Part shown: piece by piece, positions 2,906-39,209 of the stretch
Position numbering within the stretch: the first letter of the stretch is position 1
How the letters are laid out: the number at the start of each line of letters is the position of its first letter
DNA from: Escherichia phage vB_EcoA_ASO2B
Sequence record: MZ726794.1
Direction: 5' to 3' (one strand)
DNA: 39,917 nt
Translations under genes and position numbers: made by a program
The notes under the pieces: model-generated
The model's input: the letters and a program-made list of their open reading frames with translations, nothing else
Databases searched by the model: none
What the model was told of the DNA's origin: nothing

Positions 2906-2926
2906 ACTTAACTATCACTTTAGGAC
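2906..2926 (+). promoter_or_regulatory. Phage RNAP promoter variant (ttaactatcactTtagga) upstream of gene 1
   Basis: Matches the 11-member promoter family except A->T in the TATA element. Confidence 0.5.
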
Positions 2927-2997
2927 TAAAGGTCTAAGACTACAAGTGAAAGACCAAAGAGACTCTAAGTGAAAGACTAATAACAAGGACTTTAAGT

Positions 2998-5679
2998 ATG
3001 AGCGTCATCTCTATTGATAAACACGACTTCTCTGATGTGTCGAACGCCATTGAGCCGTTTAACCTGCTGGCTGACCACTACGGGCAGGACCTTGCAGTCA
3101 AGCAGCTTCAGCTTGAGCATGAGGCATACACTGAAGGCGAGCGACGTTTCATCAAAAACCTTGAGCGACAGACTGAGCGCGGGGAACTGGCAGACAATCA
3201 GGTCGCCAAGCCTTTGATGCAGACTCTGGTTCCTAAGATTGCGCAAGCCGTCAGGGAGTGGTATGAAGGTCCAGACGGGAAGCTGTCAACCTCTCGTCCT
3301 AGCGTAGCGTTCACCATGTTAAGCACCGAAGAGAAGGCCGTCAAGGACCGCTCTCTGCGTATCCCTTGCGAGTCTGCTGCGGTCATCATACTGAAGGTCA
3401 TACTCTCCAAGCTGGTAAAGCCTGAAGGGATACCGATTACACCGATGGCCTCCGCGATAGGTCGCACACTTGAGGACGAAATCCGCTTCGGTCGCATCCG
3501 TGACAAAGAGAAAGAGCACTTCAAGAAGGCGATAGCTGATAACCTGAATAAGCGGGCCGGGGCGTCCTACAAGAAAGCCTACATGCAAGCGGTCGAGACA
3601 TCCATGCTGGAGCAAGGCCAACTGGAAGATGCGTGGGGAACTTGGAGTCCTACAGAGGCTGTCCACGTGGGCATCAAGATGCTTGAGATTGTCATCCAGT
3701 CAACACAACTGGTCGAGCTTAAGCGGTACGGTGCTGGCAATGCAGCGGCTGACGTAGAGATGGTCCACCTGTCAGACTTCTGGGTAAAGAAGATGGCACA
3801 ACGAGGATTCAGCCTTGCGGGTATAGCTCCAGTCTACCAGCCTTGCGTCGTTCCACCTAAGCCGTGGACTGGTGTCGTAGGTGGTGGGTACTGGGCCAAA
3901 GGTCGCAGACCGCTACCCCTGATTCGCTTAGGGTCTAAATCAGCGGTGGCACGTTATGAAGACGTATACATGCCTGAAGTCTATGACGCTGTGAATATCA
4001 TCCAGAATACACCTTGGAAAGTGAACAAGAAGGTACTGGACGTGGTGAACATGGTCGAGAAGTTGAACAAAACGCCTATTGATGACATCCCTCAGATGGA
4101 GCCACTGAAGCCTGAAGACTATGCGGGTGAGACTGAGGAGGAACTCAAGGCATGGAAGAAGGCTGCTGCTGGTATCTATCGCCGCGAGAAGGCCCGACAG
4201 TCGCGAAGATTGTCACTGAGCTTTATCGTTAACCAAGCGAACAAGTTCTCTCAGTTCAAGGCCATCTGGTTCCCGTACAACATGGACTGGCGTGGGCGCG
4301 TCTACGCTGTGCCGATGTTCAACCCTCAAGGTAACGACATGCAGAAAGGTCTCCTTACTCTGGCAGTCGGTAAGCCTATTGGTGCTGACGGTTTCAAATG
4401 GCTGAAGGTCCATGGTGCAAACTGCGCGGGTGTTGATAAAGTCACCTTCGAGGAGCGCATCAAGTGGGTGGAAGACAACCACGACAACATTATGGCTGCT
4501 GCTAAGGCACCTATGGATAGCATTGAGTGGTGGGGCAAGTTAGACTCTCCGTTCTGCTTCCTTGCGTTCTGCTTCGAGTATGCTGGTGTAATGCATCACG
4601 GATTGTCTTACTCCTGCTCATTACCGATAGCGTTCGATGGGTCATGCTCAGGGATTCAGCACTTTAGCGCGATGCTTCGTGATCACATAGGTGGACATGC
4701 AGTAAACCTAACGCCTTCCGGTAAGGTCCAAGACATCTACCGAATCGTGTCCGACCGCATTGAGGAAGAGCTTAAAGTCCTGCTGGTTAACGGCACAGAC
4801 AACGAGATGGTAACTCACGAGGACAAGAAAACTGGTGAGATTACCGAACGCCTCAAGCTGGGGACACGAGAGCTGGCCCGGCAGTGGCTGACTTACGGCA
4901 TGTCACGCAAGGTCACTAAGCGTTCAGTAATGACTCTGGCCTATGGGTCGAAAGAGTACGGCTTCGCAGACCAAGTTTATGAGGACATCGTGATGCCGGC
5001 GATTGACTCAGGGTCTGGCGCTATGTTCACCGAACCAAGCCAAGCGTCCCGCTTCATGGCTAAGATGATTTGGGAAGCTGTGAGCGTGACCGTAGTTGCT
5101 GCGGTTGACGCAATGAAGTGGCTTCAGGGTGCTGCCAAGCTGCTGGCTGCTGAAGTGAAGGACAAGAAGACTGGAGAAATCCTGAAGCCTTGCCTTCCGG
5201 TACACTGGGTAACACCTGATGGTTTCCCGGTCTGGCAGGAATACCGCAAGAAGGATACCACCCGTCTGAATCTGATGTTCTTAGGGTCATTCAACCTTCA
5301 ACCTACGGTCAACAAAGGCATGAAGAAAGAGTTGGACAAGCAAAAGCAGGAGTCAGGCATTAGCCCGAACTTCGTCCACTCACAAGATGGTAGCCACCTA
5401 CGCAAGACTGTAGTCCACACGCACCGCAAGTATGGCGTGATGTCCTTCGCAGTGATTCACGATAGCTTCGGGACCATCCCTGCTGACGCTGAGTATCTGT
5501 TCCGTGGTGTCCGTGAGACGATGGTCGAGACCTACCGCGATAACGATGTGCTGCTTGACTTCTACGAGCAGTTTGAATACCAGCTTCACGAGAGCCAGCG
5601 CGACAAGTTACCTGAGCTTCCGAAGAAAGGTAAACTGAATATCGAAGACATTCTGTCTTCAGACTTTGCATTCGCTTAA
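2998..5679 (+). CDS. Single-subunit DNA-dependent RNA polymerase (T7 gene 1 homolog), 893 aa
   Basis: Size and position as T7 RNAP (883 aa); C-terminus ...DFAFA as in T7; conserved segments e.g. RRPLPLIRLGSKS, FDGSCSGIQHFSAMLRD, HDSFGT. Confidence 0.97.
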   Translation: MSVISIDKHDFSDVSNAIEPFNLLADHYGQDLAVKQLQLEHEAYTEGERRFIKNLERQTERGELADNQVAKPLMQTLVPKIAQAVREWYEGPDGKLSTSRPSVAFTMLSTEEKAVKDRSLRIPCESAAVIILKVILSKLVKPEGIPITPMASAIGRTLEDEIRFGRIRDKEKEHFKKAIADNLNKRAGASYKKAYMQAVETSMLEQGQLEDAWGTWSPTEAVHVGIKMLEIVIQSTQLVELKRYGAGNAAADVEMVHLSDFWVKKMAQRGFSLAGIAPVYQPCVVPPKPWTGVVGGGYWAKGRRPLPLIRLGSKSAVARYEDVYMPEVYDAVNIIQNTPWKVNKKVLDVVNMVEKLNKTPIDDIPQMEPLKPEDYAGETEEELKAWKKAAAGIYRREKARQSRRLSLSFIVNQANKFSQFKAIWFPYNMDWRGRVYAVPMFNPQGNDMQKGLLTLAVGKPIGADGFKWLKVHGANCAGVDKVTFEERIKWVEDNHDNIMAAAKAPMDSIEWWGKLDSPFCFLAFCFEYAGVMHHGLSYSCSLPIAFDGSCSGIQHFSAMLRDHIGGHAVNLTPSGKVQDIYRIVSDRIEEELKVLLVNGTDNEMVTHEDKKTGEITERLKLGTRELARQWLTYGMSRKVTKRSVMTLAYGSKEYGFADQVYEDIVMPAIDSGSGAMFTEPSQASRFMAKMIWEAVSVTVVAAVDAMKWLQGAAKLLAAEVKDKKTGEILKPCLPVHWVTPDGFPVWQEYRKKDTTRLNLMFLGSFNLQPTVNKGMKKELDKQKQESGISPNFVHSQDGSHLRKTVVHTHRKYGVMSFAVIHDSFGTIPADAEYLFRGVRETMVETYRDNDVLLDFYEQFEYQLHESQRDKLPELPKKGKLNIEDILSSDFAFA

Positions 5680-5694
5680 TAACAGGAGAAGTAT

Positions 5695-5925
5695 ATGTCA
5701 ATGAAACTTGTAGCACACAACAAAGCATTCAACGATGGGTCGGGACGTTGTCATGTAGAGCTGACTTATAAGGATTTAGTCATTCTCAGAGACAGATTAC
5801 AAGCTGGTGTTACTGGGTGGATTCAACCTAACGAGTACAACCTTATCGCTTCGATTGACGAAGTGCTTAACGCGTGGAGGGAAGACGAGCGCACTCAGTA
5901 TCCATCATTCCCTACAATTAGATAA
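5695..5925 (+). CDS. Hypothetical protein (76 aa) downstream of RNAP
   Basis: SD aggaga 7 nt upstream of ATG; no family recognised. Confidence 0.5.
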   Translation: MSMKLVAHNKAFNDGSGRCHVELTYKDLVILRDRLQAGVTGWIQPNEYNLIASIDEVLNAWREDERTQYPSFPTIR

Positions 5926-5935
5926 GGAGCTAGTT

Positions 5936-6151
5936 ATGAAATTTGCACACAAGCATACTGGCGTTAATGGTGGGACTCAAATCGTGACCGTAACAGAACA
6001 CAACGGCGCGGGTCTGGTGAAGACCACGGTCATCCCGACCAAGATGTCCAAGCAGCTTAACATCCCGTTCAAGACTCTTGTAGATCTGGTCGAGTCCAGC
6101 CACGAGAAGTACCTGAAGGACGCAGTGTCCAAGCTGGAGCAGGCCAAATGA
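5936..6151 (+). CDS. Hypothetical protein (71 aa)
   Basis: Internal ATG at 5936 of track ORF 5807..6151, preceded by SD aaggag (5924-5929); the longer track ORF would overlap the upstream gene. Confidence 0.5.
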   Translation: MKFAHKHTGVNGGTQIVTVTEHNGAGLVKTTVIPTKMSKQLNIPFKTLVDLVESSHEKYLKDAVSKLEQAK

Positions 6152-6225
6152 CAGACCTACAGTCACTGGCCTTGTGGCTAGGAGCACTCGCAGTATTCAC
6201 TTTAATCCAACGCAGAAGAGGTTAA

Positions 6226-6248
6226 CCCTAAACTATCACTATAGGATT
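6226..6248 (+). promoter_or_regulatory. Phage RNAP promoter (ctaaactatcactatagga)
   Basis: Consensus core; position equivalent to T7 phi1.1. Confidence 0.75.
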
Positions 6249-6292
6249 AGACTCAAGGTCATGACTCAAAGTCGTGGCCTTCATGATTAACC
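6248..6292 (+). promoter_or_regulatory. RNase III-type processing site (R1.1-like)
   Basis: tagactcaaggtcatgactcaaagtcgtggccttcatgattaac; same motif at 13468 and 36784; resembles T7 R0.3 (actcaagg...gtgccctttatgat). Confidence 0.55.
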
Positions 6293-6321
6293 CTAACGTA
6301 AACTACTGGAGATTTAACCAC

Positions 6322-6501
6322 ATGTATCAGAACACTATCAACTTTGAGCGCATCCGTGAACGTCAGCAGACTGAAGACTACATCCCGAAGGGACGCAAGC
6401 TGAACAAGATCAAGCGTGGTGGTGGTGTCAAAGGCGCTTTCCGTAATGCTGAAGGTAAAGACTCTCTGGTCAACCAAGAGAAATACTTCGTAGGAGCATA
6501 A
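6322..6501 (+). CDS. gp1.1-like small basic protein (59 aa)
   Basis: Internal ATG 6322 with SD ggag; contains KGRKLNKIKR like T7 gp1.1 (KGRKLNKTKR); the upstream part of track ORF 6274..6501 lies within the R-site. Confidence 0.6.
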   Translation: MYQNTINFERIRERQQTEDYIPKGRKLNKIKRGGGVKGAFRNAEGKDSLVNQEKYFVGA

Positions 6502-6505
6502 CCAA

Positions 6506-6769
6506 ATGGGCCGACTTTATAGTGGCATCCTCAACGCTTTCAGAGCAGCGTGTAACAGGCTCTACCAGTTAGACTTCGCTGTTATATCTCAGGAGTTTCA
6601 AGACCATGTGTCACGCCAAGAGTGCATGAGACTCAGGGTGGAGGACCGAGCTGGTAACATCTTCGCGCTTGAGACCTTCACACACTACGATGAAGACGTG
6701 CTGTATAATACTGCAACCAACTACCTCAACGGTCTCGCTGACCATATCGACACATGGAGCAAAGCATAA
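6506..6769 (+). CDS. gp1.2-like protein (host dGTPase inhibitor homolog), 87 aa
   Basis: Begins MGRLYSG..., with ...HYDEDVLYN, matching T7 gp1.2 (MGRLYSGNL..., HHDEDVLFN). Confidence 0.85.
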   Translation: MGRLYSGILNAFRAACNRLYQLDFAVISQEFQDHVSRQECMRLRVEDRAGNIFALETFTHYDEDVLYNTATNYLNGLADHIDTWSKA

Positions 6770-7845
6770 TGACAACTATTAAAACCAACCCGCACCGCGC
6801 TGTAGATTACTCTGAGTCTGGCGTTAAGAAGGCACTGGAAGCAGCCGGGTCTCTGGAAGCTGAAGTGAAGTACGACGGTGTGCGCCTGAATCTCCCGGTC
6901 CTGCGTGAAGGTGAGACCTACTGGCTGAGTCGTGAGTCTAAACCTCTTCCAGCCTTGGAGTGGATGAACTCTGAGTTAGGGAATGCGTGGACCCAAGCTG
7001 ACTGGCGCTGGTTCCTACGTCAAGCTGGCTACGAAGGTGTGGGCATGATGATTGATGGCGAGGTCATGGTCAAAGGTGTAGACTTCAACACCTCCTCAGG
7101 TCTCATCCGCACGAAGTGGCTGAAGCCTAACAACGAGGAGTTCGCTGAATGCTATCCGTGGCGCGGTAAGAAGGTCCCGTTCTGGGCCGCCCGGTCAAGA
7201 CTTCAGGTTGTGGTATACGGTGTCGTAGACATGACAACCATTGCTGACCCGAAAGCCGAAGGTCCTATCCATAGCGTCACACGCCTGAAGGCCGAAGCTA
7301 TCGTCCCTCTCCTCCAGAAATACTTCCCGGAAATCGACTGGGTTCTGTCTGAGTCACACACGGTCTATGACCTTGAGTCGCTCAACTCCCTGTACGAAGA
7401 GAAGCGTCTGGAAGGACATGAGGGTCTGGTAGTCAAAGACCCGCTTGGTAAGTGGAAGCGTGGCAAGAAGTCAGGCATGTGGAAAATGAAGCCTGAGGAT
7501 ACCATCGACGGGACCGTATGCGGACTCGTGTGGGGGACTCCGGGTAAGGCTAACGAAGGTAAGGTCATCGGCTTCGAGGTTCTGCTGGAGGACGGAATGG
7601 TAGTTAATGCTTGTGGTCTGACTGAAGAACAGAAGGACGAGTTCACAGCTAACGTCGCTGAATCTAGTGGTTATACCTTGGCTGGTGGCCCTGTGGTTAT
7701 TCAGGATGGGACCGAGAAGATCAACCCATACGAAGGCTGGCAGTGCGAAGTCCTCTTCATGGAGCGGTTCCCAGATGGTTCCCTTCGTCACCCTAGCTTC
7801 AAGTGCTGGCGCGGAACGGAAGATAACCCAACTGTTAAGAGTTAA
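6754..7845 (+). CDS. ATP-dependent DNA ligase (T7 gene 1.3 homolog), 363 aa
   Basis: Adenylation motif KYDGVR (EVKYDGVRLN); size as T7 ligase (359 aa); followed by the early terminator. Confidence 0.92.
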   Translation: MEQSIMTTIKTNPHRAVDYSESGVKKALEAAGSLEAEVKYDGVRLNLPVLREGETYWLSRESKPLPALEWMNSELGNAWTQADWRWFLRQAGYEGVGMMIDGEVMVKGVDFNTSSGLIRTKWLKPNNEEFAECYPWRGKKVPFWAARSRLQVVVYGVVDMTTIADPKAEGPIHSVTRLKAEAIVPLLQKYFPEIDWVLSESHTVYDLESLNSLYEEKRLEGHEGLVVKDPLGKWKRGKKSGMWKMKPEDTIDGTVCGLVWGTPGKANEGKVIGFEVLLEDGMVVNACGLTEEQKDEFTANVAESSGYTLAGGPVVIQDGTEKINPYEGWQCEVLFMERFPDGSLRHPSFKCWRGTEDNPTVKS

Positions 7846-7855
7846 CTAAATTTCA

Positions 7856-7895
7856 ACCCAGTGGTCTTAGCGGACTGCTGGGTTTCTTTGCTTTG
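7856..7895 (+). terminator. Early rho-independent terminator (TE-like)
   Basis: Stem AACCCAGTGGTC / GACTGCTGGGTT (7856-7885, with G-U pairs), loop ttagcg, then tctttgctttg. Confidence 0.7.
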
Positions 7896-7929
7896 TGCTA
7901 GCAAGCTATAGTCTTGGCCACCAGCTAGA

Positions 7930-7952
7930 CCCTAAGCTATCACTATAGGACA
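7930..7952 (+). promoter_or_regulatory. Phage RNAP promoter variant (ctaagctatcactatagga)
   Basis: Core atcactatagg present; upstream aaGctat variant. Confidence 0.65.
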
Positions 7953-7977
7953 ACCATCAACAACCTAAGGAGACTCT

Positions 7978-8232
7978 ATGTCTAAGAACTTAATGTTCAA
8001 CCGTTATACCGATACCTTCCACCTGTCCAACAACCCGTTTGCTTGCATTAAGCGTAACGAGAAGCTGGGCTACTTCGGGAAGGCCGTTAAGCTGTCACCT
8101 ACAGTCTTCGCTCTGATTACTCCGGGCAAAGCTGAAGAGGCTCGCCAGAAGCGCGAGACCAGCGTACCTGTGGTCTACACTAAGTGGCCTCGTGTTCGCC
8201 TGTTCGTTGAGTTCGTGAAGGAGGTGTTCTGA
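7978..8232 (+). CDS. Hypothetical protein (84 aa), gene 1.6 position
   Basis: SD aaggag upstream; stop overlaps next start (TGATG). Confidence 0.5.
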   Translation: MSKNLMFNRYTDTFHLSNNPFACIKRNEKLGYFGKAVKLSPTVFALITPGKAEEARQKRETSVPVVYTKWPRVRLFVEFVKEVF

Positions 8233-8774
8233 TGGGATGCATAGCTTGCTTAGAGAAGGATGACCGTTATCCACACACCTGTAATAAAGGAGTTAACAAC
8301 ATGACTGAACGCGAGCAAGAAATGATCGTGAAGCTGGTAGACAACAACGAAGGTCGCCCAGATTATTTGGATGGCTGCGGGATCCTTTGCTCTAATGTCC
8401 CTTGCCACCTCTGCCCCGCAAACAACAATCCCAAAATAACCTTAGGTGAAATCCGAGCGATGGACCATCGTAAGTCTAATCTGGATAAACAAGAGGTAAC
8501 TCCTACAGATGGCCAACCTTCCACTGAGTCAATCGACGCTGTCCGCAAGCCGTCCCACTATCAGGTCTTTGATGGTGTGGAATCCATTGAGATTATCGCT
8601 CGGTCCATGACTGTCAGTGAGTTCCGTGGCTTCTGCGTGGGTAACGTCCTGAAGTATCGACTCCGAGCTGGTAAGAAGTCCGAGCTGGCTACTATGGAGA
8701 AGGACCTAAACAAAGCGGCCTTCTATCAGGAGCTGTTCGACCTGCATAAAGGCAAGTGCTATGCTGCCGAGTGA
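8232..8774 (+). CDS. Probable gp1.7-like nucleotide kinase (180 aa)
   Basis: Synteny and size match T7 gene 1.7; Cys-rich N-terminus (CIACLEKDDRYPHTCNKG, CGILCSNVPCHLCP); sequence similarity to T7 gp1.7 is recalled, not verified. Confidence 0.6.
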   Translation: MGCIACLEKDDRYPHTCNKGVNNMTEREQEMIVKLVDNNEGRPDYLDGCGILCSNVPCHLCPANNNPKITLGEIRAMDHRKSNLDKQEVTPTDGQPSTESIDAVRKPSHYQVFDGVESIEIIARSMTVSEFRGFCVGNVLKYRLRAGKKSELATMEKDLNKAAFYQELFDLHKGKCYAAE

Positions 8775-8972
8775 ATGGTGCCGGGAGATGTACGAGAAGA
8801 CTCTCAACCCGGACTACATTACGTTATACAACCAATGGAAGGAGCGAGGTTTATGAACCAAGATCAGATTAACTTTGTGTGCCAGCTTATTAAGGAGTTC
8901 GTGGACTTCACTGATTTATCCGAAGATGAACTTGTTAAGCTGGAAGAGATTCTCGACAAGGAGATTTTATGA
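8775..8972 (+). CDS. Small acidic protein, gene 1.8 position; likely real start at 8853 (39 aa)
   Basis: ATG 8853 preceded by SD ggaaggag; stop overlaps gp2 start (ATGA). Confidence 0.4.
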
Positions 8973-9127
8973 CTGAGGTTGAGAAGAAATACATCGTGGA
9001 GCTTGAGGGTCGCGTTCAGTCCTTCGAGGTTCCGGTGTACGCAAAGTCTCTTGAAGAGGCTACCCTGAAGTCCCAAGAGTATGAGGACGCTGGTTTTGTG
9101 GTCGGACGGATTCGTCCTGAGACCTAA
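8969..9127 (+). CDS. Gp2-like inhibitor of host RNA polymerase (52 aa)
   Basis: Not in ORF track (<60 aa). [52 protein letters not shown]; matches T7 Gp2 SFEVPIYA...AGFEVTRVRP including the Arg pair. Confidence 0.75.
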
Positions 9128-9144
9128 ACTATCACTTTAGGACA
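9123..9144 (+). promoter_or_regulatory. Phage RNAP promoter variant (ctaaactatcactTtagga), phi2.5-like
   Basis: Overlaps gp2 stop; TTTAGG variant shared with the 2906 promoter. Confidence 0.6.
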
Positions 9145-9185
9145 GACGTCAAGTTTGTAACTTTTAAATGAGGAGATTTACACCA

Positions 9186-9887
9186 ATGGCTAAAGAGCAA
9201 CTGAAGACTTTCACCACTCCGGTATCTGGTATCGTTGAGCCTTACGCATGGCTGAACAAAGCAGACACCAAGTTTAACGAGCGTGGTGAGCATAAGGTTA
9301 ACCTGACATTCGACCTGAGCAACCCGAAGGTCCGTAAGATGATTGATGTCTTACAGAAGATTCACGACGATGCGTATGAGAAAGCACTCGCAGACCACGA
9401 GAAGAACCCGCCTCAGGTTCAGCGTGGCAAGAAGCCTATTGAACCACGAGAAGGCGACATGCCGTGGATTGAGAATGGTGACGGTACTGTTACCCTTAAG
9501 TTTAAATGCTTTGCGTCTTACCTTAAAGACGGCAAGTCAGAGCCTATCGTATTACGGTTCTACGACACTGATGCTAAGTTAATCCGTGACGTCCCGAATA
9601 TTGGCGCTGGCTCAAAGCTGAAGGTCAAGTTTAAAGTCCTGCCGTTCAAGTGGAACGCTGCGACTGGTGCAAGCGTTAAGCTCCAGCTTGAGTCCTGCCT
9701 TCTGGTAGAACTGAAGGAATGGAAAGGTGATGGTGCTGGTGGCGATGGTGGCTGGGGTGATGATGAAGACCTCGGTACTGGCTACAAAGCGTCAACCGAT
9801 GGTGACTTCGGTGACGATGACTTCGGTGACGATGGTTCCGAAGGTGGTGGTGACGACTCCAACTCTGGTGGCGATTACGACTTCTAA
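9186..9887 (+). CDS. Single-stranded DNA-binding protein (T7 gp2.5 homolog)
   Basis: Start MAKEQLK at 9186 with SD gaggag (track ORF starts 18 nt upstream inside the SD); motifs RGKKP, MPWIENGDGTVTLKFKC, SVKLQLES; C-terminal ...DYDF as in T7 gp2.5. Confidence 0.9.
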   Translation: MAKEQLKTFTTPVSGIVEPYAWLNKADTKFNERGEHKVNLTFDLSNPKVRKMIDVLQKIHDDAYEKALADHEKNPPQVQRGKKPIEPREGDMPWIENGDGTVTLKFKCFASYLKDGKSEPIVLRFYDTDAKLIRDVPNIGAGSKLKVKFKVLPFKWNAATGASVKLQLESCLLVELKEWKGDGAGGDGGWGDDEDLGTGYKASTDGDFGDDDFGDDGSEGGGDDSNSGGDYDF

Positions 9888-10339
9888 TGGCCCAATGGTC
9901 TGCAAAACGGGGGCACTCTGTGGGTGCCTACCGCTCTGGACTTGAAGCCAAGAACCAGCAGTGGCTGGAACAGAATGGCGTCAAAGCGGAGTACGAAAGC
10001 CATTATATCAACTATGTGATTCCGGCTTCCGACCACAAGTATACACCAGACTTTATCCTTCCTAACGGTATCATCGTGGAGACCAAAGGTATCTTCGATA
10101 GTGATGACCGTAAGAAGCACCTTCTGGTACGAGAACAGCACCCAGAGTTAGACATCCGGTTCGTGTTCTCAAGTTCCCGCTCCAAGCTATACAAAGGGTC
10201 TCCGACCACGTATGGCGCATGGTGTGAAAAGAATGGCTATAAGTATGCCGATAAGTTCATCCCGGTTGAGTGGCTGAAAGAGGCGACTGTACGTCTGCCT
10301 TCAGGTATCCTCATCCCCAAGAAGAAAGGAGTTAAGTGA
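9887..10339 (+). CDS. Endonuclease I, Holliday-junction resolvase (T7 gene 3 homolog)
   Basis: FRSGLE...YVIPASDHKYTPDFILPNGIIVETKG...DDRKKHLLVREQHPELDIRFVFSSSRSKLYKGSPTTYG closely matches T7 gp3. Confidence 0.92.
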   Translation: MAQWSAKRGHSVGAYRSGLEAKNQQWLEQNGVKAEYESHYINYVIPASDHKYTPDFILPNGIIVETKGIFDSDDRKKHLLVREQHPELDIRFVFSSSRSKLYKGSPTTYGAWCEKNGYKYADKFIPVEWLKEATVRLPSGILIPKKKGVK

Positions 10340-10809
10340 TGACTCAGAAATTTAGACTTAAGGTTAGTGACTACGGGTGGCCTAAAGGCACTATCGTTAC
10401 GAAATGTGCGAAAGACCCTGCACCATCAAACGGGCGTACTCTGGTGGAATCCACTGAGCGTGGCACATATAAACACGGAGCAGCAGGTCATAACACTCAG
10501 CCTGATGGTATGTGGGGGGCGTGGGTTGTAAACGAAAATCTTGAGGAAATCGTAGAGGATAAACCTCAGGTCCTACCAGCCTCAAGCGTCCCTCCTGTCA
10601 CCGTTAAACGTGAAGTCCTGACCATCAACAAGATTGGTGTAGGCCAGACGTTCATCGTCCACGGTAAGCCTGACGAAGTGTACGTGAAGATTAGCAACTC
10701 TCACGTATTCAACCACAAGCGGCTACAGATGCACACGACTGACGCACAGCGCTTCCAGTCACATCTGAATCTGGTGGTAGTAGAACTGGTGGTGTACAAT
10801 GGTAAGTAA
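10339..10809 (+). CDS. Hypothetical protein (156 aa) inserted between endonuclease I and lysozyme
   Basis: ATG 10339 overlaps gene 3 stop (TGATG), SD aaggag; no T7 counterpart at this position; no family recognised. Confidence 0.55.
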   Translation: MTQKFRLKVSDYGWPKGTIVTKCAKDPAPSNGRTLVESTERGTYKHGAAGHNTQPDGMWGAWVVNENLEEIVEDKPQVLPASSVPPVTVKREVLTINKIGVGQTFIVHGKPDEVYVKISNSHVFNHKRLQMHTTDAQRFQSHLNLVVVELVVYNGK

Positions 10810-11257
10810 GGTACAGTTCAACCCACGGTCCCGGACTGACGCTATCTTCGTGCACTGTTCGGCTACCAAGCCAGAGATGGACATCGGGGTAGAGACCATC
10901 CGTATGTGGCACAAGCAGCAAGGCTGGCTGGATGTAGGCTACCACTTTATCATCAAGCGTGATGGTACTGTGGAAGAGGGTCGCCCGGTAAATGTCGTAG
11001 GGTCACACGTTAAGGATTGGAACTCCCGGTCAGTAGGCGTCTGCCTTGTAGGTGGAATTGACGCTAAGGGTCAGTTTGAAGCTAACTTCACTCCAGCCCA
11101 GATGAACTCCCTGCGCAACAAGCTGGCTGACCTGAAGGTCCTGTATCCTCAGGCAGAAATCAAAGCACACCATGACGTAGCACCTAAGGCGTGTCCAAGT
11201 TTTGACTTGCAACGCTGGCTGTCTACCAATGAACTGGTCACTTCCGACCGTGGTTAA
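10799..11257 (+). CDS. Lysozyme / N-acetylmuramoyl-L-alanine amidase (T7 gene 3.5 homolog)
   Basis: TDAIFVHCSATKP...WLDVGYHFIIKRDGTVEEGR...HHDVAPKACPSFDL...NELVTSDRG matches T7 lysozyme almost throughout. Confidence 0.93.
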   Translation: MVSKVQFNPRSRTDAIFVHCSATKPEMDIGVETIRMWHKQQGWLDVGYHFIIKRDGTVEEGRPVNVVGSHVKDWNSRSVGVCLVGGIDAKGQFEANFTPAQMNSLRNKLADLKVLYPQAEIKAHHDVAPKACPSFDLQRWLSTNELVTSDRG

Positions 11258-11281
11258 TAAACTCTAAGGGAGAACAACCCA

Positions 11282-11497
11282 ATGATTAAAATTATCGAAT
11301 TTCTTGGTCGTCTGGTGGTGCGTGGGTATCGTCGTGCTGCGGTACTGGAACGAAAGGTAGAAAAGAAGAATGCGGACGGTGCGGCTGATGCTGCTGCTCT
11401 GGCTGACAAGCTGACCATCGCGTCACTGGAAGCTGGAATGAAGGCTCGTCAGGCTGATACCAAAGCTGACCAGTTGGCTCAGTTCTTCAAAGCCTAA
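11282..11497 (+). CDS. Hypothetical small protein (71 aa), Ala/Lys-rich
   Basis: SD gggaga upstream; no family recognised. Confidence 0.45.
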   Translation: MIKIIEFLGRLVVRGYRRAAVLERKVEKKNADGAADAAALADKLTIASLEAGMKARQADTKADQLAQFFKA

Positions 11498-11514
11498 ACT
11501 ATCACCTTAGGGAT
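11492..11514 (+). promoter_or_regulatory. Phage RNAP promoter variant (ctaaactatcacCttaggga) upstream of gene 4
   Basis: Family member with a C substitution in the TATA element. Confidence 0.55.
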
Positions 11515-11562
11515 GGGACAATTAGTCCTGTCCCTTTGTTCGCATTTGTGATTAAGGAGTGA

Positions 11563-13299
<1,737 letters not shown>

Positions 13300-17166: not shown

Positions 17167-17189
17167 ACTAAACTATCACTATAGGGACT
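17167..17189 (+). promoter_or_regulatory. Phage RNAP promoter (ctaaactatcactatagggac), phi6.5-like
   Basis: Perfect consensus; begins the late (class III-like) region. Confidence 0.8.
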
Positions 17190-17250
17190 TTAGGACCTAA
17201 GATATGACTATAAGATAGACTTTAGTCTTAACTTAAAGAGGAGATTCAAG

Positions 17251-20013: not shown

Positions 20014-20031
20014 ACTATCACTATAGGAACA
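20009..20031 (+). promoter_or_regulatory. Phage RNAP promoter (phi9-like)
   Basis: cctaaactatcactataggaac overlapping the portal stop. Confidence 0.8.
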
Positions 20032-22310: not shown

Positions 22311-22350
22311 AAACCCCTTGGGTGCCTTCGGGTGCTTGAGGGGTTTTTTG
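22311..22350 (+). terminator. Late terminator (Tphi-like)
   Basis: aaaccccttgggtgccttcgggtgcttgaggggttttttg: GC-rich hairpin with G-U pairs plus a T6 tract, near-identical architecture to T7 Tphi. Confidence 0.85.
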
Positions 22351-25626: not shown

Positions 25627-25651
25627 CTTATTGAAGGGCCTATAGATTTAC

Positions 25652-25674
25652 CTTAACTATCACTATAGGGACTA
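25652..25674 (+). promoter_or_regulatory. Phage RNAP promoter (phi13-like)
   Basis: ccttaactatcactatagggact. Confidence 0.8.
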
Positions 25675-32000: not shown

Positions 32001-32931
32001 CATCGTGGAGCATAGCCTGACTGGTAGTAAGCGTAAATTCGATGACCGCTGGCTGAAGACAGCTGGTATCTCTGACGAGCAGTGGAAGGGCATTAAGTCC
32101 CTAATCCGTGAGTCAGTGACTCGTGGTCCAGACGGGAAGTATATCATCAAGGATAAGAAGGCGTTCAGTCAGGACCCAAGGGCTATGGACCTGTGGCGTA
32201 TGGGTGATACCATCGCTGACGAAACGTTACTCCGGCCACACAAGCTGTCCAACATGGACGCCAAGGCTTATGGTCCTCTCGCTAAGACTGTCCTTCAGTT
32301 TAAGAACTTCGTCATCAAGTCCATCAATGGACGTACCATGCGAACCTTCTATAACGCCACGAAGAACAACCGAGCGATGGACGCTGCCTTGTCCACTGTG
32401 ATGTCTATGGGTCTGGCTGGTATCTACTACATGGCTCAGGCGCACGTCAAGGCCTACGCTATGCAGGATGGTCGAGACCGTGACTACCTCAAGCAAGCTC
32501 TAGACCCGACGATGATTGGATATGCAGCTCTATCACGTAGTTCACATCTTGGTGGACCACTTGGGGTAGCTAACATTCTGGGTGGCATCGCTGGGTATGA
32601 GGACACTAAGATGCTCCGTTCGTCTATCCTACCTCGTTCGCCTACAGAGAAGCCTGAACGTGCCATCGCGTATGGTGCAGCTACAAGCGGCCCTGTGATG
32701 AATGTTGTTGGTAACTTCTTGGAGCAGGTTCCAGCTTTCGGATATGCTGCTAACGTTGGCGCTTCGGCTTACAACTTGGCTGGCTACCTCAAGGCTGATA
32801 CTCGTGTCAACGAGCGTGACTACATGACCGGGATGTATAATACGTTCCGTGAACTGGTTCCGAACGACCCAATTACCCAGAAGCTGTTGCTTGGAACGTT
32901 TGAGGAGCAAGGTATCCACATCAAGGACTAA
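29044..32931 (+). CDS. Internal virion protein D (T7 gene 16 homolog), 1295 aa, with divergent N-terminal domain
   Basis: From about residue 200 onward matches T7 gp16 (RLEARETARN, DLVRSPTGMQSGASGK, PHVYS, EENIxGLVGxENNSFLEARNLFDSD, RPHK, LSRSS); N-terminal ~150 aa lack the T7 transglycosylase motif I recall. Confidence 0.92.
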   Translation: MATRGIRNNNPGNIRVSKDQWEGMTGDDGSFVTFDSPESGVRALGKNLLSYGRQGYDSIEKIINRWAPPNENDTKAYIDSVVAATGIPATQSLDLSNPDTLSALAQAISFHETGSRYNPEVYQKGVERALNGISPKTPPVSANVFDALTEGLKAKPKVALGENLPTAAGLNIEGQAPEAPNESFGEMFYKSTGETMQEREDRSTWFGFGSATEAEVKNSMVGVAIRAGQTEDSLDVIGDVFNPTRWNNHKWSREELDQIRNAGVLPQYYGVITGGSPQNLTELINLALENQKLDQEKAKAGTGAQLAAGVIGAGVDPLTYVPIAGQVGKGAKLVNKMFTVAAQSGALAGVSEMARTSVAGGDAHVAEAILGGALFGGGMTAIADGLGRALGRNTNEFAGPATRLEARETARNVDGQDLSRLPIQEGEQTFSHQGVKFADVPNEPGSVRLEDGSILIGENPLNPKTRQVFDEVIEPERAAAGVNLGGLTEIGLKLLRSENPEIRGVAADLVRSPTGMQSGASGKIGTTASDVFERLRAVDHRFYNDIDDAVTEALKDPYFQTAFWRDSGAFRQDIYQRVSMAIEDGSGNLKAELTPGELKVYDLLKNQFDAKREMMENPAMFGRSDAQSIFPGSRFKGTYVPHVYSKQMKELYTKELGSPEALQEAIKKAWLTSYASRPEVKKRVDEALLESDPTLTPEGLAAAVDKYANDKAYGISHTEQFERSSVMEENINGLVGLENNSFLEARNLFDSDMSIVLPNGQTFSVNNLREWDMDKIVPAYNRRVNGDIAIMAGTGKTTKEMKDLVETMMNKAGDDGKLKGEVSTLRDTLKILTGRARRDGADDAAFAAVMRTMTDLSFFAKNAYMGVQNLTEIGGMLARGNVRAMLHGVPIFRDLAFRNKKVGASEIKDLHNVIFGKELDDSIRPSKQDVIDRLRSYSDLGRGTATALGTAKYYTGELAVRSPFTKALNGTTNYLLDAGRQGFLSDIVEHSLTGSKRKFDDRWLKTAGISDEQWKGIKSLIRESVTRGPDGKYIIKDKKAFSQDPRAMDLWRMGDTIADETLLRPHKLSNMDAKAYGPLAKTVLQFKNFVIKSINGRTMRTFYNATKNNRAMDAALSTVMSMGLAGIYYMAQAHVKAYAMQDGRDRDYLKQALDPTMIGYAALSRSSHLGGPLGVANILGGIAGYEDTKMLRSSILPRSPTEKPERAIAYGAATSGPVMNVVGNFLEQVPAFGYAANVGASAYNLAGYLKADTRVNERDYMTGMYNTFRELVPNDPITQKLLLGTFEEQGIHIKD

Positions 32932-32949
32932 ACTATCACTATAGGAAAC
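32927..32949 (+). promoter_or_regulatory. Phage RNAP promoter (phi17-like)
   Basis: ggactaaactatcactataggaaac overlapping the gp16 stop. Confidence 0.8.
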
Positions 32950-32995: not shown

Positions 32996-35900
32996 ATGTC
33001 CACGATTACACAATTCCCTTCAGGAAACACTCAGTACAGGATTGAGTTCGACTACCTCGCCAGAACGTTTATTGTTGTTACGCTGGTGAATAGCTCTAAC
33101 CCTACCCTGAACCGTGTACTGGAAGTTGGTCGAGATTACCGATTCCTTAATCCAACGATGATTGAGATGTTGGTTGACCAATCAGGTTTCGACATCGTTC
33201 GTATTCACCGTCAGACTGGAACTGACTTAGTGGTAGACTTCAGGAATGGCTCAGTGTTGACAGCTAGTGACCTGACCAATTCAGAGCTTCAGGCTATCCA
33301 TATTGCAGAAGAAGGTAGAGACCAAACGGTTGACTTAGCGAAGGAATATGCCGATGCTGCTAGTAGCTCTGCTGGCAACGCTAAGGATAGCGAGGACGAA
33401 GCACGACGAATCGCTGAGAGTATCAGGGAAGCTGGTCTAATTGGCTATATTACCCGTCGCTCCTTCGAGAAAGGCTACAACGTTACAACATGGAGCGAGG
33501 TCCTGCTATGGGAAGAGGATGGTGATTATTACCGCTGGGATGGTACGCTTCCAAAGAACGTTCCTGCTGGTTCAACTCCTGAAACTTCCGGTGGGATTGG
33601 ATTAGGTGCGTGGGTTAGTGTTGGTGATGCTGCTTTAAGAAGTCAGATTTCAAATCCTGAGGGGGCAATACTCTACCCTGAATTACATAGAGCACGCTGG
33701 CTTGATGAAAAAGATGTTCGTGGTTGGGGTGCTAAAGGTGATGGTGTCACTGATGATACAGCAGCGTTAACGAGCGCATTAAACGACATACCGGTTGGAC
33801 AAAAGATTAATGGCAATGGGAAGACATATAAGGTCACGTCCCTGCCTGACATTAGTCGCTTCATCAACACTCGTTTCGTTTATGAGCGCATTCCCGGACA
33901 ACCTCTTTATTATGCCTCTGAGGAATTTGTTCAGGGTGAGTTGTTCAAAATAACTGACACCCCTTATTACAATGCGTGGCCTCAGGATAAAGCGTTCGTA
34001 TATGATAATGTGATATATGCACCTTACATGGGCAGCGATCGTCATGGTGTCAGTCGTCTGCATGTATCATGGGTTAAGTCTGGTGATGATGGTCAAACAT
34101 GGTCTACTCCAGAGTGGTTAACTGATCTGCATCCAGATTACCCTACAGTGAACTATCACTGTATGAGTATGGGTGTATGTCGCAACCGTCTGTTTGCCAT
34201 GATTGAAACACGTACTTTAGCCAAGAACGCATTAACCAATTGTGCATTGTGGGATCGCCCCATGTCTCGTAGCCTGCATCTTACTGGTGGTATCACTAAA
34301 GCTGCAAATCAGCAATATGCAACAATACATGTACCAGACCACGGACTATTCGTGGGTGATTTTGTTAACTTCTCTAATTCTGCGGTAACAGGTGTATCCG
34401 GTGATATGACTGTTGCAACCGTAATAGATAAGGACAACTTCACGGTTCTTACACCCAACCAGCAGACTTCAGATTTGAATAACGCTGGAAAGAATTGGCA
34501 CATGGGTACGTCTTTCCATAAGTCTCCATGGCGTAAGACAGACCTTGGTCTAATCCCTCGTGTCACAGAGGTGCATAGCTTTGCTACTATTGATAACAAT
34601 GGCTTTGTTATGGGTTATCATCAAGGCGATGTAGCCCCACGCGAAGTTGGGCTTTTCTACTTCCCTGATGCTTTCAATAGCCCATCTAGTTATGTTCGTC
34701 GTCAGATACCATCTGAGTATGAACCAGATGCGTCAGAGCCGTGCATCAAGTACTATGACGGTGTATTATACCTTATCACTCGTGGCACTCGTGGGGATAG
34801 ACTAGGTAGCTCTTTGCATCGTAGTAGAGACATAGGTCAGACTTGGGAGTCACTGAGATTTCCACATAATGTTCATCATACTACATTACCTTTTGCTAAA
34901 GTAGGGGATGACCTTATTATGTTTGGTTCAGAACGTGCAGAAAATGAATGGGAAGCAGGTGCACCAGATGATCGTTACAAGGCATCTTATCCTCGCACCT
35001 TCTATGCACGCTTGAATGTAAACAATTGGAATGCAGATGATATTGAATGGGTTAACATCACTGACCAGATTTATCAGGGCGGAATAGTTAACTCAGGTGT
35101 AGGTGTTGGTTCGGTAGTTGTGAAGGATAATTACATCTACTACATGTTTGGTGGAGAGGACCATTTTAACCCATGGGCATATGGAGATAACTCAGCGAAG
35201 GACCCATTCAAATCAGATGGTCATCCCTCAGATTTGTATTGCTACAAAATGAAGATTGGCCCAAGCAATCATGTTTCCCGTGATTTCAGGTATGGTGCTG
35301 TACCTAACAGAGCTGTTCCCGTGTTTTTTGATACGAATGGGATTCGCACTGTTCCTGCGCCAATGGAATTTACAGGGGATTTGGGTTTAGGTCATGTGAC
35401 CCTTAGAGCCAGCACCAGTAGTAACATTCGCTCTGAAGTTTTAATGGAAGGTGAATATGGGTTTATCGGGAAGTCTATACCGACTGATAATCCAGCAGGG
35501 CAGCGCACCATATTTTGCGGAGGTGAAGGCACCAGTTCAACGACTGGCGCACAGATTACGCTTTATGGTGCAAATAACACCGACTCAAGGCGAATAGTTT
35601 ACAATGGTGATGAGCATCTGTTCCAGACTGCTGACGTTAAGCCTTATAACGATAACGCCATTGCGCTTGGTGGGCCAAGTAACCGTTTCACAACTGCATA
35701 TCTCGGAAGCAACCCTATTGTTACTTCTAATGGGGAGAAGAAAACAGAGCCGGTAGTTTTTGATGATGCTTTCCTAGATGCCTGGGGTGACGTTCACTAC
35801 ATCATGTATCAATGGTTAGATGCTGTTCAACTGAAAGGCAATGATGCTCGTATTCACTTCGGGGTTATTGCTCAGCAAATTCGTGATGTATTCATTGCAC

Positions 35901-36190
35901 ACGGTCTGATGGATGAAAACAGTACGAATTGTCGTTATGCCGTTCTGTGTTATGACAAGTATCCACGGATGACCGATACGGTATTTTCGCACAATGAAAT
36001 CATTGAACACACTGACGAGGAGGGTAATGTCACTACTACGGAAGAGCCTGTATTCACTGAGGTGGTTATCCATGAAGAGGGTGAAGAGTGGGGTGTCCGG
36101 CCTGACGGAATTTTCTTTGCTGAAGCCGCTTATCAGAGAAGAAAACTGGAAAGAATCGAAGCCAGACTTTCTGCTCTTGAACAGAAGTAA
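32996..36190 (+). CDS. Tail fibre / tailspike (gene 17), 1064 aa: T7-type N-terminal adaptor fused to sialidase-type (endosialidase-like) depolymerase with C-terminal intramolecular chaperone
   Basis: N-terminus RIEFDYLARTFIVVTL matches the T7 gp17 adaptor (NIPFEYLARKFVVVTL); two perfect Asp-boxes SGDDGQTW (34079-34102) and SRDIGQTW (34823-34846); C-terminal HFGVIAQQ chaperone motif with Ser911-x3-Lys-Lys at 35726. Confidence 0.9.
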   Translation: MSTITQFPSGNTQYRIEFDYLARTFIVVTLVNSSNPTLNRVLEVGRDYRFLNPTMIEMLVDQSGFDIVRIHRQTGTDLVVDFRNGSVLTASDLTNSELQAIHIAEEGRDQTVDLAKEYADAASSSAGNAKDSEDEARRIAESIREAGLIGYITRRSFEKGYNVTTWSEVLLWEEDGDYYRWDGTLPKNVPAGSTPETSGGIGLGAWVSVGDAALRSQISNPEGAILYPELHRARWLDEKDVRGWGAKGDGVTDDTAALTSALNDIPVGQKINGNGKTYKVTSLPDISRFINTRFVYERIPGQPLYYASEEFVQGELFKITDTPYYNAWPQDKAFVYDNVIYAPYMGSDRHGVSRLHVSWVKSGDDGQTWSTPEWLTDLHPDYPTVNYHCMSMGVCRNRLFAMIETRTLAKNALTNCALWDRPMSRSLHLTGGITKAANQQYATIHVPDHGLFVGDFVNFSNSAVTGVSGDMTVATVIDKDNFTVLTPNQQTSDLNNAGKNWHMGTSFHKSPWRKTDLGLIPRVTEVHSFATIDNNGFVMGYHQGDVAPREVGLFYFPDAFNSPSSYVRRQIPSEYEPDASEPCIKYYDGVLYLITRGTRGDRLGSSLHRSRDIGQTWESLRFPHNVHHTTLPFAKVGDDLIMFGSERAENEWEAGAPDDRYKASYPRTFYARLNVNNWNADDIEWVNITDQIYQGGIVNSGVGVGSVVVKDNYIYYMFGGEDHFNPWAYGDNSAKDPFKSDGHPSDLYCYKMKIGPSNHVSRDFRYGAVPNRAVPVFFDTNGIRTVPAPMEFTGDLGLGHVTLRASTSSNIRSEVLMEGEYGFIGKSIPTDNPAGQRTIFCGGEGTSSTTGAQITLYGANNTDSRRIVYNGDEHLFQTADVKPYNDNAIALGGPSNRFTTAYLGSNPIVTSNGEKKTEPVVFDDAFLDAWGDVHYIMYQWLDAVQLKGNDARIHFGVIAQQIRDVFIAHGLMDENSTNCRYAVLCYDKYPRMTDTVFSHNEIIEHTDEEGNVTTTEEPVFTEVVIHEEGEEWGVRPDGIFFAEAAYQRRKLERIEARLSALEQK

Positions 36191-36832: not shown

Positions 36833-36882
36833 AACTAGTGGAGGAGACTCTACGTGCAATCTGATAAACCGGGAGGGCAACT

Positions 36883-37332: not shown

Positions 37333-39092
37333 GTAAAGATTTAGTGGCGCGTCAGGCGCTAATGACTGCCCGTATGAAGGCAGACTTCGTGTTCTTCCTG
37401 TTCGTCCTGTGGAAAGCTCTGTCACTACCAGTCCCGACTCGCTGTCAGATTGACATGGCGAAGAAACTATCGGCTGGGGACAACAGGCGTTTCATCCTAC
37501 AGGCGTTCCGTGGTATCGGGAAGTCATTCATTACGTGCGCATTCGTGGTATGGAAACTGTGGAACAACCCAGACTTGAAGTTCATGATTGTGTCGGCCTC
37601 AAAGGAACGAGCAGATGCGAACTCCATCTTCATCAAGCGAATCATCGACCTCATGCCTCAGCTTCAGGAACTTAAACCTAAGCAGGGGCAGCGAGATGCG
37701 GTTATCAGCTTCGACGTTGGACCAGCCAAGCCAGATCACTCACCTTCGGTTAAGTCCGTTGGTATCACTGGTCAGTTGACTGGTAGTCGTGCTGACATCC
37801 TGATTGCCGATGACGTGGAGGTTCCTAACAACTCAGCGACTCAGGCTGCACGAGACCGTCTGTCAGAGCTTGTGAAAGAGTTCGACGCTATCCTGAAGCC
37901 GGGAGGTACAATCATCTATCTGGGTACTCCTCAGAACGAGATGACCTTGTATCGTGAGCTGGAAGGCCGAGGATACACCACTACCATCTGGCCCGCTCGC
38001 TACCCACGCGATAAGAAGGACTGGCAGTCTTACGGCGACCGTCTGGCTCCTATGCTTCAGGCAGAGCTTGAAGAGGACCCTGAGTCCTTCTACTGGCGTC
38101 CTACCGATGAAGTACGATTCGATGATACGGACCTGAAGGAACGTGAGCTGTCCTATGGTAAAGCTGGCTTCGCTCTACAGTTCATGCTTAACCCTAACCT
38201 GAGTGATGCCGAGAAGTACCCTCTGAAGCTCCGTGACCTTATCGTAGCAGACTTGGACCCAGCGTCTAGCCCAATGGTCTACCAATGGCTTCCTAACCCT
38301 CAGAACAAGCGTGAGGACGTTCCTAACGTTGGACTCATGGGTGACTCATACCACACGTATCAGACTGTAGGTTCTGCCTTCAGTTCGTACACCCAGAAGA
38401 TTCTGGTCATTGACCCTAGTGGTCGTGGTAAGGATGAAACGGGTTATGCGGTACTGTACCAGCTAAACGGCTACATCTTCGCTATGGAAGTTGGCGGTAT
38501 GCGAGGTGGCTATGAAGACTCTACGCTGGAATCCTTGGCTAAGATTGGTCGTAAGTGGAAGGTAAACGAATACGTCATTGAGGGTAACTTCGGTGATGGC
38601 ATGTACCTTGAGCTATTCAAGCCCGTAGCTTCCCGTATTCATCCTGCTGCTGTAACTGAAGTGAAGAGTAAGGGTCAGAAGGAACTCCGCATCTGTGACG
38701 TTCTGGAGCCTATCATGGGGTCTCACCGACTTATCGTCAACGCTGCTGCTATCGTCCAAGATTACCAGTCTGCCTCTGATAAGGATGGTGTTCGTAACCC
38801 TATCTACTCTCTCTTCTACCAGATGACACGTATCTCTCGTGAACGTGGAGCATTGGCACACGATGACCGACTTGATGCGCTGGCTATCGGTGTACAGTTC
38901 TTCGTTGAGTCTATGGCGAAGGATGCCAACAAAGGCGAACGTGAAGTCACTGAGGAGTGGCTGGAGGAACAGATGGAGAACCCACGGAAAGGCTTCGAGT
39001 CCATCCACACGGAGTTCTGGGACAATGGTGTCCGGGTAACTCACGATACGGACGACGAGATGGGACTAGGGTCCTACGTTACGTTCCACTAG
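37329..39092 (+). CDS. Terminase large subunit (T7 gene 19 homolog), 587 aa
   Basis: Size and order as T7 gp19 (586 aa); ATPase-like N-terminal half ([15 protein letters not shown]) and nuclease-like C-terminal half. Confidence 0.95.
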
Positions 39093-39186
39093 CTGAATGA
39101 ATAACTATAGGCGAAAACTGAATTAATAAGCAGTTAGTAACCTATAGTTACTACCAGTCTAACCTACTGTTTTACAAGGAGTTTGG

Positions 39187-39209
39187 ACTTAACTATCACT
39201 ATAGGGAAG
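39187..39209 (+). promoter_or_regulatory. Phage RNAP promoter near right end (phiOR-like)
   Basis: gacttaactatcactatagggaaga. Confidence 0.8.

Follow-up and report, generated by a model that had tools for sequence, protein, structure and literature searches.

Eleven predicted promoters for the T7-type RNA polymerase of the K1F-like coliphage vB_EcoA_ASO2B and their division into an early and a late set

Escherichia phage vB_EcoA_ASO2B (sequence record MZ726794.1) carries eleven copies of a 23-bp element that very probably make up the complete promoter set of its own T7-type RNA polymerase, the product of gene 1, and that belong to the K1F/Kayfunavirus specificity class. The stretch of DNA analyzed here, which we call the window, spans 39,917 bp and contains, in full, the genome of a T7-family coliphage, a K1F-like podovirus of the genus Kayfunavirus in the subfamily Studiervirinae; about 92% of it is coding, and its gene order is that of T7. 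The early and middle copies of the element deviate from the consensus of the late copies, a split that resembles the one between T7 class II and class III promoters.

A preliminary description of this DNA, made from the sequence without database searches, had reported eleven copies of a promoter-like repeat, always intergenic or overlapping gene ends; both points hold, and its coordinates lie within 1 nt of the starts given here. A search with TAAACTATCACTWTAGGRA, allowing up to 3 mismatches on both strands, returned 11 matches, all on the + strand, against a mean of 0.01 in 100 dinucleotide-preserving shuffles, none of which (0/100) reached 11. The sites were then taken as 23-mers, corresponding to promoter positions -17 to +6, and a weight matrix made from them was scanned over both strands of the genome. 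The eleven sites score 30.8 to 35.8 bits, and a gap of 14 bits separates them from the next best site. The runners-up, both on the + strand, are found at 17196 (16.8 bits) and 34147 (14.4 bits), and the top minus-strand site reaches 8.0 bits. Thus, the genome-wide search on both strands that had been suggested as a check bears out the claim: all eleven sites score at least 30.8 bits, nothing on the minus strand exceeds 8.0 bits, and the scan of the whole genome found no hidden extra members, no copies in gene bodies, and none on the minus strand. The information content of the element is about 32 bits, compared with the 12.8 bits needed for specifying 11 sites in the genome. The elements are listed below; for the early ones, the corresponding features in the record of the related phage EcoDS1 are also given.

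2906 to 2928, + strand: early promoter directly upstream of gene 1, ACTTAACTATCACTTTAGGACTA; predicted start G 2923; deviates at -3 (T) and +4 (C); syntenic with EcoDS1 'phi' 2244-2266.
6227 to 6249, + strand: early promoter, phi1.1-like, after gene 1 and the small open reading frames that follow it, CCTAAACTATCACTATAGGATTA; predicted start 6244; deviates only at +4 (T); EcoDS1 'phi' 6034-6056.
7931 to 7953, + strand: phi1.6 promoter, CCTAAGCTATCACTATAGGACAA; predicted start 7948; nonconsensus G at -12 and C at +4; EcoDS1 phi1.6.
9123 to 9145, + strand: phi2.5 promoter, CCTAAACTATCACTTTAGGACAG; predicted start 9140; nonconsensus T at -3 and C at +4; overlaps the gene 2 TAA stop; EcoDS1 phi2.5.
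11493 to 11515, + strand: promoter before gene 4 (primase/helicase), CCTAAACTATCACCTTAGGGATG; predicted start 11510; nonconsensus C at -4 and T at -3; includes the TAA of the upstream open reading frame; EcoDS1 'phi' 11107-11129.
17167 to 17189, + strand: late promoter phi6.5, ACTAAACTATCACTATAGGGACT; predicted start 17184; no deviation from the late consensus.
20009 to 20031, + strand: late promoter phi9, CCTAAACTATCACTATAGGAACA; predicted start 20026; overlaps the gene 8 TAA stop.
21008 to 21030, + strand: late promoter phi10, before the major capsid gene, ACTAAACTATCACTATAGGGAGA; predicted start 21025.
25651 to 25673, + strand: late promoter phi13, CCTTAACTATCACTATAGGGACT; predicted start 25668.
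32927 to 32949, + strand: late promoter phi17, before the endosialidase tailspike gene, ACTAAACTATCACTATAGGAAAC; predicted start 32944; overlaps the gene 16 TAA stop.
39187 to 39209, + strand: phiOR promoter, about 600 nt away from the end of the physical genome, ACTTAACTATCACTATAGGGAAG; predicted start 39204; the minimal Ro45lw promoter validated in vitro is identical to its first 21 nt.

Seven of the eleven sites are wholly intergenic. The remaining four (9123, 11493, 20009, and 32927) share exactly 5 nt with the upstream gene because the TAA stop codon of that gene forms promoter positions -15 to -13. Given the coding fraction of the genome, the chance that all eleven start sites would fall outside gene bodies is about 6e-13. 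Moreover, every site has the orientation of the genes, and the distance to the next start codon is 28 to 188 nt. Within the element, TCAC at -8 to -5 and AGG at -1 to +2 are present in all eleven copies; exact CACTATAGG occurs in eight, while CACTTTAGG is found at 2906 and 9123 and CACCTTAGG at 11493. ACTAT occupies -12 to -8 in 10 of 11 sites (GCTAT at 7931), and positions -17 to -13 read MCTWA. The substitutions that had been listed for individual early sites are correct (TTTAGG at 2906 and 9123, CCTTAGG at 11493, and aaGctat at 7931). The accompanying statement that the six late promoters are perfect consensus copies holds if W is allowed at -14 and fails for a strict match, with 25651 and 39187 having T, not A, at that position.

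Two lower-scoring sequences were considered and rejected as promoters. The sequence at 34147 to 34169 in gene 17, AGTGAACTATCACTGTATGAGTA, has TG, not GG, at +1/+2, is common only to Escherichia phage Mt1B1_P3, and is absent from K1F; it is probably a chance match. The other, CCTAAGATATGACTATAAGATAG at 17196 to 17218, is without the TCAC and GG core. It is situated 29 nt downstream of phi6.5, and its first 19 nt are found exactly, at the same offset, in six of eight other Kayfunavirus genomes; a fold test found no significant RNA structure in the leader of the 17196-17218 region. This sequence may be a decayed duplicate promoter.

The polymerase that would read these elements is encoded within the window, and the parts of its gene that are relevant to promoter recognition are as follows.

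2998 to 5679, + strand: gene 1, T7-type single-subunit RNA polymerase of 893 amino acids; Pfam RNA_pol and RPOL_N.
5257 to 5310, + strand: specificity-loop codons, residues 754 to 771 (T7 744 to 761), TTRLNLMFLGSFNLQPTV, from alignment with T7 polymerase.
3265 to 3312, + strand: codons aligned with the T7 AT-rich recognition loop, EGPDGKLSTSRPSVAF; 2-residue insertion; strongly diverged from T7 and T3.

The gene 1 product matches Pfam RNA_pol with an E value of 1.5e-106, as well as RPOL_N, and its amino acid identity to other phage polymerases is 99.0% for EcoDS1, 98.9% for K1F, 94.2% for Ro45lw, 63.7% for T7, 63.4% for T3, 59.2% for K11, and 32.3% for SP6. Comparison of the specificity loop, TTRLNLMFLGSFNLQPTV, with QTRLNLMFLGQFRLQPTI of T7 reveals the changes Q744T, Q754S, R756N, and I761V; the loop is the same in K1F and EcoDS1 and is one residue apart from that of Ro45lw. 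On the promoter side, positions -12 to -8 are ACTAT in the window, CGACT in T7, ACCCT in T3, and GGGCA in K11, while CACTATA-G at -7 to +1 is common to the window, T7, and K11 promoters (T7 phi1.1A and K11 phi1.05 were compared). It had been proposed that the -12 to -8 region differs from that of T7 and T3 and implies recognition by a distinct specificity loop. The difference is real, although the strings quoted for it were 6 to 7 nt long and in a register off by one, and the proposal of a distinct loop is upheld by the four changes and by a published 754S/756N/761V variant that pairs with ACTAT (PMC11880802).

This loop has also been used in engineered enzymes. In 2012, Temme et al. transferred the K1F loop to T7 polymerase and set promoter positions -12 to -7 to the K1F consensus, which gave 17-fold induction and was orthogonal to other pairs (PMC3458549). 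A 2025 paper in Nucleic Acids Research tabulates the K1F-loop variant as 754S/756N/761V with the cognate promoter ACTAT (Table 2; PMC11880802). Like the window, the engineered system has S, N, and V at T7 positions 754, 756, and 761 and ACTAT at -12 to -8; unlike the window, it is built on T7 polymerase and keeps the flanks of the T7 promoter (TAATA upstream and GGGAGA downstream). The window enzyme, in contrast, has a diverged AT-rich-loop region and T at 744, and the -17 to -13 region of its promoters is MCTWA.

By analogy with T7, the specificity loop (window residues 754 to 771) would read the major groove at about -12 to -7. R746 and Q758 (T7 numbering) are kept in the window polymerase, as are C at -7 and T at -8 in the promoters, and the two residues would match these two bases. 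The change of T7 R756 to N accompanies A instead of C at -9, and the combination of N at 756, S at 754, and V at 761 would lead to the preference for ACTAT. We infer these individual residue-to-base contacts from the T7 structure as summarized previously (PMC11880802). The diverged AT-rich-loop region, with its 2-residue insertion, may likewise fit the non-T7 MCTWA at -17 to -13, in which -17 and -16 (M and C) are less AT-rich. Transcription would begin at the first G of GGR.

In T3 promoters, -12 (A), -11 (C), and -8 to -5 (TCAC) are as in the window, but -10/-9 is CC rather than TA and -2 is A. D748 and R756 of the T3 polymerase are both replaced by N in the window enzyme.

Annotation and experiments in close relatives agree with the promoter assignment. 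The EcoDS1 GenBank record (EU734172) annotates 11 'phi' promoters, which are one-to-one syntenic with the window sites and lie, in order, before gene 1, after gene 1.05, at phi1.6 and phi2.5, before gene 4, at phi6.5 and phi9, before gene 10, and at phi13, phi17, and phiOR; 8 of the 11 23-mers are identical. Matching sets of 11 sites are also present in K1F, Ro45lw, Mt1B1_P3, phiYIO1-1, SH3, EV136_1, and SAKp10309. Several of the promoters are annotated in the Ro45lw RefSeq record (NC_048136), and neither K1F GenBank record (DQ111067 or AM084414) contains promoter features. A 2025 paper in the Journal of Biological Chemistry found that purified Ro45lw polymerase transcribes from ACTTAACTATCACTATAGGGA(CT), which could be trimmed to a 21-nt minimal promoter, and 5'-end sequencing placed +1 at the G of ACTTAACTATCACTATAGGGA (PMC12272871). 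Site 39187 of the window begins with this same 21-nt sequence, ACTTAACTATCACTATAGGGA. Repeats of CTWAACTATCACTATAGG were likewise read as promoters in a 2026 genome note that describes a different Kayfunavirus (PMC13298934). A literature search on start-site mapping in Kayfunavirus returned no relevant paper.

For near-identical parts, then, the literature has shown initiation at the +1 G (with the Ro45lw polymerase) and recognition of ACTAT (with the grafted K1F loop). In the window, the elements have the core, the cognate polymerase, and the placement and strand of promoters for T7-like (Autographiviridae) single-subunit polymerases, and initiation at +1 is predicted. The earlier suggestion that the sites serve the phage's own polymerase is thus well founded, considering that a T7-type polymerase is encoded, that the sites are co-oriented ahead of start codons, and that EcoDS1 carries the phi annotation.

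Some copies may have an additional purpose. The candidates are the phiOR site at 39187 and the site at 6227, whose main task could be in replicating the DNA or processing concatemers, a role that has been proposed for T7 phiOR, phiOL, and phi1.1A/B. In line with this idea, phiOR is followed, 188 nt downstream, by an open reading frame of just 52 codons, and it points into the terminal repeat, with the physical end about 600 nt away; also, the annotated primary origin of replication of T3 adjoins phi1.05, just after gene 1. However, such roles still need initiation by the phage polymerase and so would add to promoter function. As the main role of these copies, we consider replication or processing possible but doubtful.

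T7 class II and class III promoters are 23 bp long and comprise a late set with the consensus and an early/middle set that deviates from it, a system reportedly described by Dunn and Studier in 1983. We compared the window with EcoDS1, K1F, Ro45lw, Mt1B1_P3, phiYIO1-1, SH3, EV136_1, and SAKp10309, nine Kayfunavirus genomes in all, by per-genome pattern searches against the late consensus TWAACTATCACTATAGGRA (-15 to +4). In the window, all five early sites and none of the six late sites deviate (Fisher P = 0.002). Across the nine genomes, deviations are present in 45/45 early or middle sites and in 0/54 late sites, with site-specific variants conserved. The class II/III-like split put forward in the preliminary description is therefore real, while the difference in promoter strength that goes with it is predicted.

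The variants are characteristic of each position. The promoter before gene 4 has C at -4 and T at -3 in 9/9 genomes, and phi2.5 has G or T at -3, never A. At phi1.6, G is found at -12 in seven of nine genomes, with EV136_1 having the consensus A. The promoter before gene 1 has T at -3 in two genomes (the window and Mt1B1_P3 only), A at -2 in three, and neither in four, along with +4 C in 9/9. Transcripts would start with GGAC or GGAT at four of the five early promoters and with GGGA or GGAA at the late ones. The late six are placed before genes 6.5, 9, 10, 13, and 17 and at the right end, which are the EcoDS1 slots phi6.5, phi9, phi13, phi17, and phiOR as well as an unnumbered 'phi' just ahead of gene 10A. 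Otherwise, relatives such as EcoDS1 and Ro45lw share the same 11 syntenic positions, the same consensus MCTWAACTATCACTATAGGRA, and a polymerase that is 94 to 99% identical, and differ from the window by single-base variants only, for instance at phi2.5, where the window has T, not G, at -3.

The promoters could be real and yet differ between early and late positions through neutral drift or shared ancestry, with no functional class II/III distinction. The genomes compared are close relatives (gene 1 DNA of the eight others is 86 to 99% identical to that of the window), and so the variants could be inherited; the variation of the gene 1 promoter between genomes (-3 T, -2 A, or neither) and the consensus A at -12 in EV136_1 phi1.6 also suit this explanation. 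Nevertheless, at least one deviation has been kept at every one of the 45 early sites and none has been gained at the 54 late sites, phi2.5 alternates between G and T at -3 and never goes back to A, and the late set fills the EcoDS1 slots named above. The promoters are also far more conserved than coding DNA: the window and Ro45lw differ at 7 of 231 nt (a hand count from 21-mers), compared with 14% divergence in gene 1. Different weakening changes at one promoter in different genomes, as before gene 1, without a return to consensus, point to selection for suboptimal strength rather than drift. We therefore regard drift or ancestry as an unlikely account of the split.

That the repeats are instead dispersed elements of another kind, for example packaging signals or sites for recombination or for a homing endonuclease, has their repetition in its favor and nothing more, and it is exceedingly improbable in view of their strict co-orientation with the genes, their placement between genes, the CACTATAGG core common to T7, the cognate polymerase encoded by the genome, and in vitro initiation from an identical 21-mer by the 94%-identical Ro45lw polymerase (PMC12272871), so that the literature effectively refutes a nonpromoter reading.

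Several points weigh against the assignment of the eleven elements as two classes of K1F-type promoters. For this exact genome, promoter activity is predicted from sequence alone, and a single residue, at T7 position 750 (M to L), separates the validated Ro45lw loop from that of the window. N at T7-748 is unchanged although -11/-10 differ from T7 (CT versus GA), and therefore a one-residue-to-one-base code falls short of fully explaining specificity. The nine genomes, being the close relatives described above, are not independent samples, and the view that the early set is weaker draws on analogy with T7 together with conservation.

The likeness to T7 extends to the surroundings of the promoters. 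T7 also has a late consensus set before genes 6.5, 9, 10, 13, and 17 and at the right end, a terminator (TE) after gene 1.3, another (Tphi) after gene 10, and several promoters that overlap upstream stop codons. It differs from the window in the -17 to -13 region as well as at -12 to -8, and it has 10 class II promoters plus phiOL where the window has only 5 early or middle promoters; a weight-matrix scan of window positions 1 to 2900 detected no phiOL-like site left of gene 1. The features of the window that bear on the order of transcription are the following.

7855 to 7884, + strand: early terminator TE, a hairpin of 13 pairs with a run of T after it, downstream of the ligase gene and upstream of phi1.6; syntenic with the EcoDS1 TE feature.
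About 22314 to 22349, + strand: Tphi-like terminator after gene 10, CCCCTTGGGTGCCTTCGGGTGCTTGAGGGG followed by TTTTTT; EcoDS1 and Ro45lw have an annotated terminator at the syntenic place.
10799 to 11257, + strand: gene 3.5, amidase/lysozyme; Pfam Amidase_2; the K1F orthologue is annotated 'lysozyme/RNA polymerase inhibitor'.

A gene for gp2, the host polymerase inhibitor, is present besides the gp3.5 gene. Most likely, then, the phage follows a T7-style program. Host polymerase would first read the early region as far as TE. The phage polymerase would then fire the five suboptimal promoters, before genes 1, 1.1 to 1.3, 1.6, 2.5, and 4, and also the six consensus promoters, before genes 6.5, 9, 10, 13, and 17 and near the right end. 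Accumulating gp3.5 lysozyme would preferentially silence the class II-like promoters, as in T7, leaving the class III-like ones to drive the virion genes. This last step, with gp3.5 as the presumed inhibitor of the phage polymerase that enforces the switch from class II to class III, is put forward by analogy with T7.

One element sets Kayfunavirus apart from the better-known phages. A phage promoter lies immediately upstream of the polymerase gene in 9/9 Kayfunavirus genomes, and the T7, T3, and K11 records annotate none there. A promoter directly before gene 1 implies positive feedback on the polymerase, that is, positive autoregulation of gene 1. This promoter and the layout of five early promoters are already visible in the EcoDS1 annotation. 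We tentatively suggest that Kayfunavirus may have a distinct, quantitatively tuned timing circuit that would combine feedback through the subconsensus gene 1 promoter, fixed weakening substitutions at each early promoter, and attenuation by a hairpin in the gene 4 leader; judging from sequence, this is a possibility and less than probable.

The gene 4 hairpin lies at 11510 to 11540, where the predicted transcript begins exactly at +1 with a 10-bp stem, GGGAUGGGAC-loop-GUCCUGUCCC, followed by UUUGUU (fold z-score, -3.15). It is kept in 8/8 Kayfunavirus genomes; the loop varies, and in three of these genomes one G-C pair has become A-U through a compensatory change. The hairpin could be a 5' stabilizer or an attenuator/terminator for the phage polymerase. 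Two other leaders are also structured. The phi10 transcript (21025 to 21055) opens with the stem GGGAGACC...GGUUUCCC (leader fold z-score, -2.7), which resembles the 5' stem-loop that pET vectors take from the leader of T7 gene 10. Downstream of the 6227 promoter, 6255 to 6283 forms a long hairpin, AAGGUCAUGACU-CAA-AGUCGUGGCCUU (z-score, -2.75). This hairpin is a candidate RNase III processing site because T3 annotates the RNase III site R1.1 there, after phi1.1.

Extra subconsensus promoters were observed in two of the nine genomes, which in this respect are unlike the window. The Citrobacter phage SH3 has one at 13643 to 13663, before gene 5, and the Enterobacter phage EV136_1 has two (8618 to 8638 and 14020 to 14040), of which one precedes gene 1.6 and one gene 5. 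Members of the genus thus differ in how many early promoters they have. A weight-matrix scan found no relic of the gene 5 promoter in the window. The EV136_1 record also contains, at 12022 to 12100 between the gene 4 promoter and gene 4, a misc_feature labeled 'tRNA'.

Further observations concern the genome as a whole. Over window positions 15000 to 39917, Mt1B1_P3 is about 99% identical and K1F about 96% identical, and over 2900 to 12900 the identity with Mt1B1_P3 is 98.7%. The window is a circularly collapsed assembly, with the T7-like physical left end (TCTCACAGTTCAAG... / TCTCACAGTTCAAGAACC...) at about 39790. Alignment with the EcoDS1 terminal repeat indicates that a single copy of a direct terminal repeat of roughly 200 bp is split over the window ends (39790 to 39917 and 1 to about 75). 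Just inside the left end, at about 105 to 175, there are about four tandem copies of the 16-nt unit CCTACAGTCTCACTAA, and CCTACAGT-like motifs recur near 39720 to 39760; both resemble the short repeat arrays that flank the T7 concatemer junction. Gene 17 (32996 to 36190) encodes an endosialidase tailspike, 98% identical to that of K1F, with the full endosialidase Pfam domain set and a C-terminal chaperone domain, and specificity for hosts with the K1 capsule is therefore predicted. Homology with EcoDS1 breaks across gene 17. An Rfam scan of the window returned no match at the gathering threshold.

The promoter type, the polymerase loop, and the eleven positions are already annotated and characterized in close relatives; the feature is of a textbook type, and the genus is well sampled. 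The finding has little import beyond correct annotation. It does illustrate how much can be read without tools: the sequence by itself was enough for recovering the full promoter set, the class of polymerase/promoter specificity, and the division into early and late promoters. The K1F loop with its ACTAT promoter is already an orthogonal part for synthetic biology, and the Ro45lw enzyme already serves in vitro transcription. In addition, a genus-wide table of the site-specific weakening substitutions could be a small natural library of graded K1F-type promoters.

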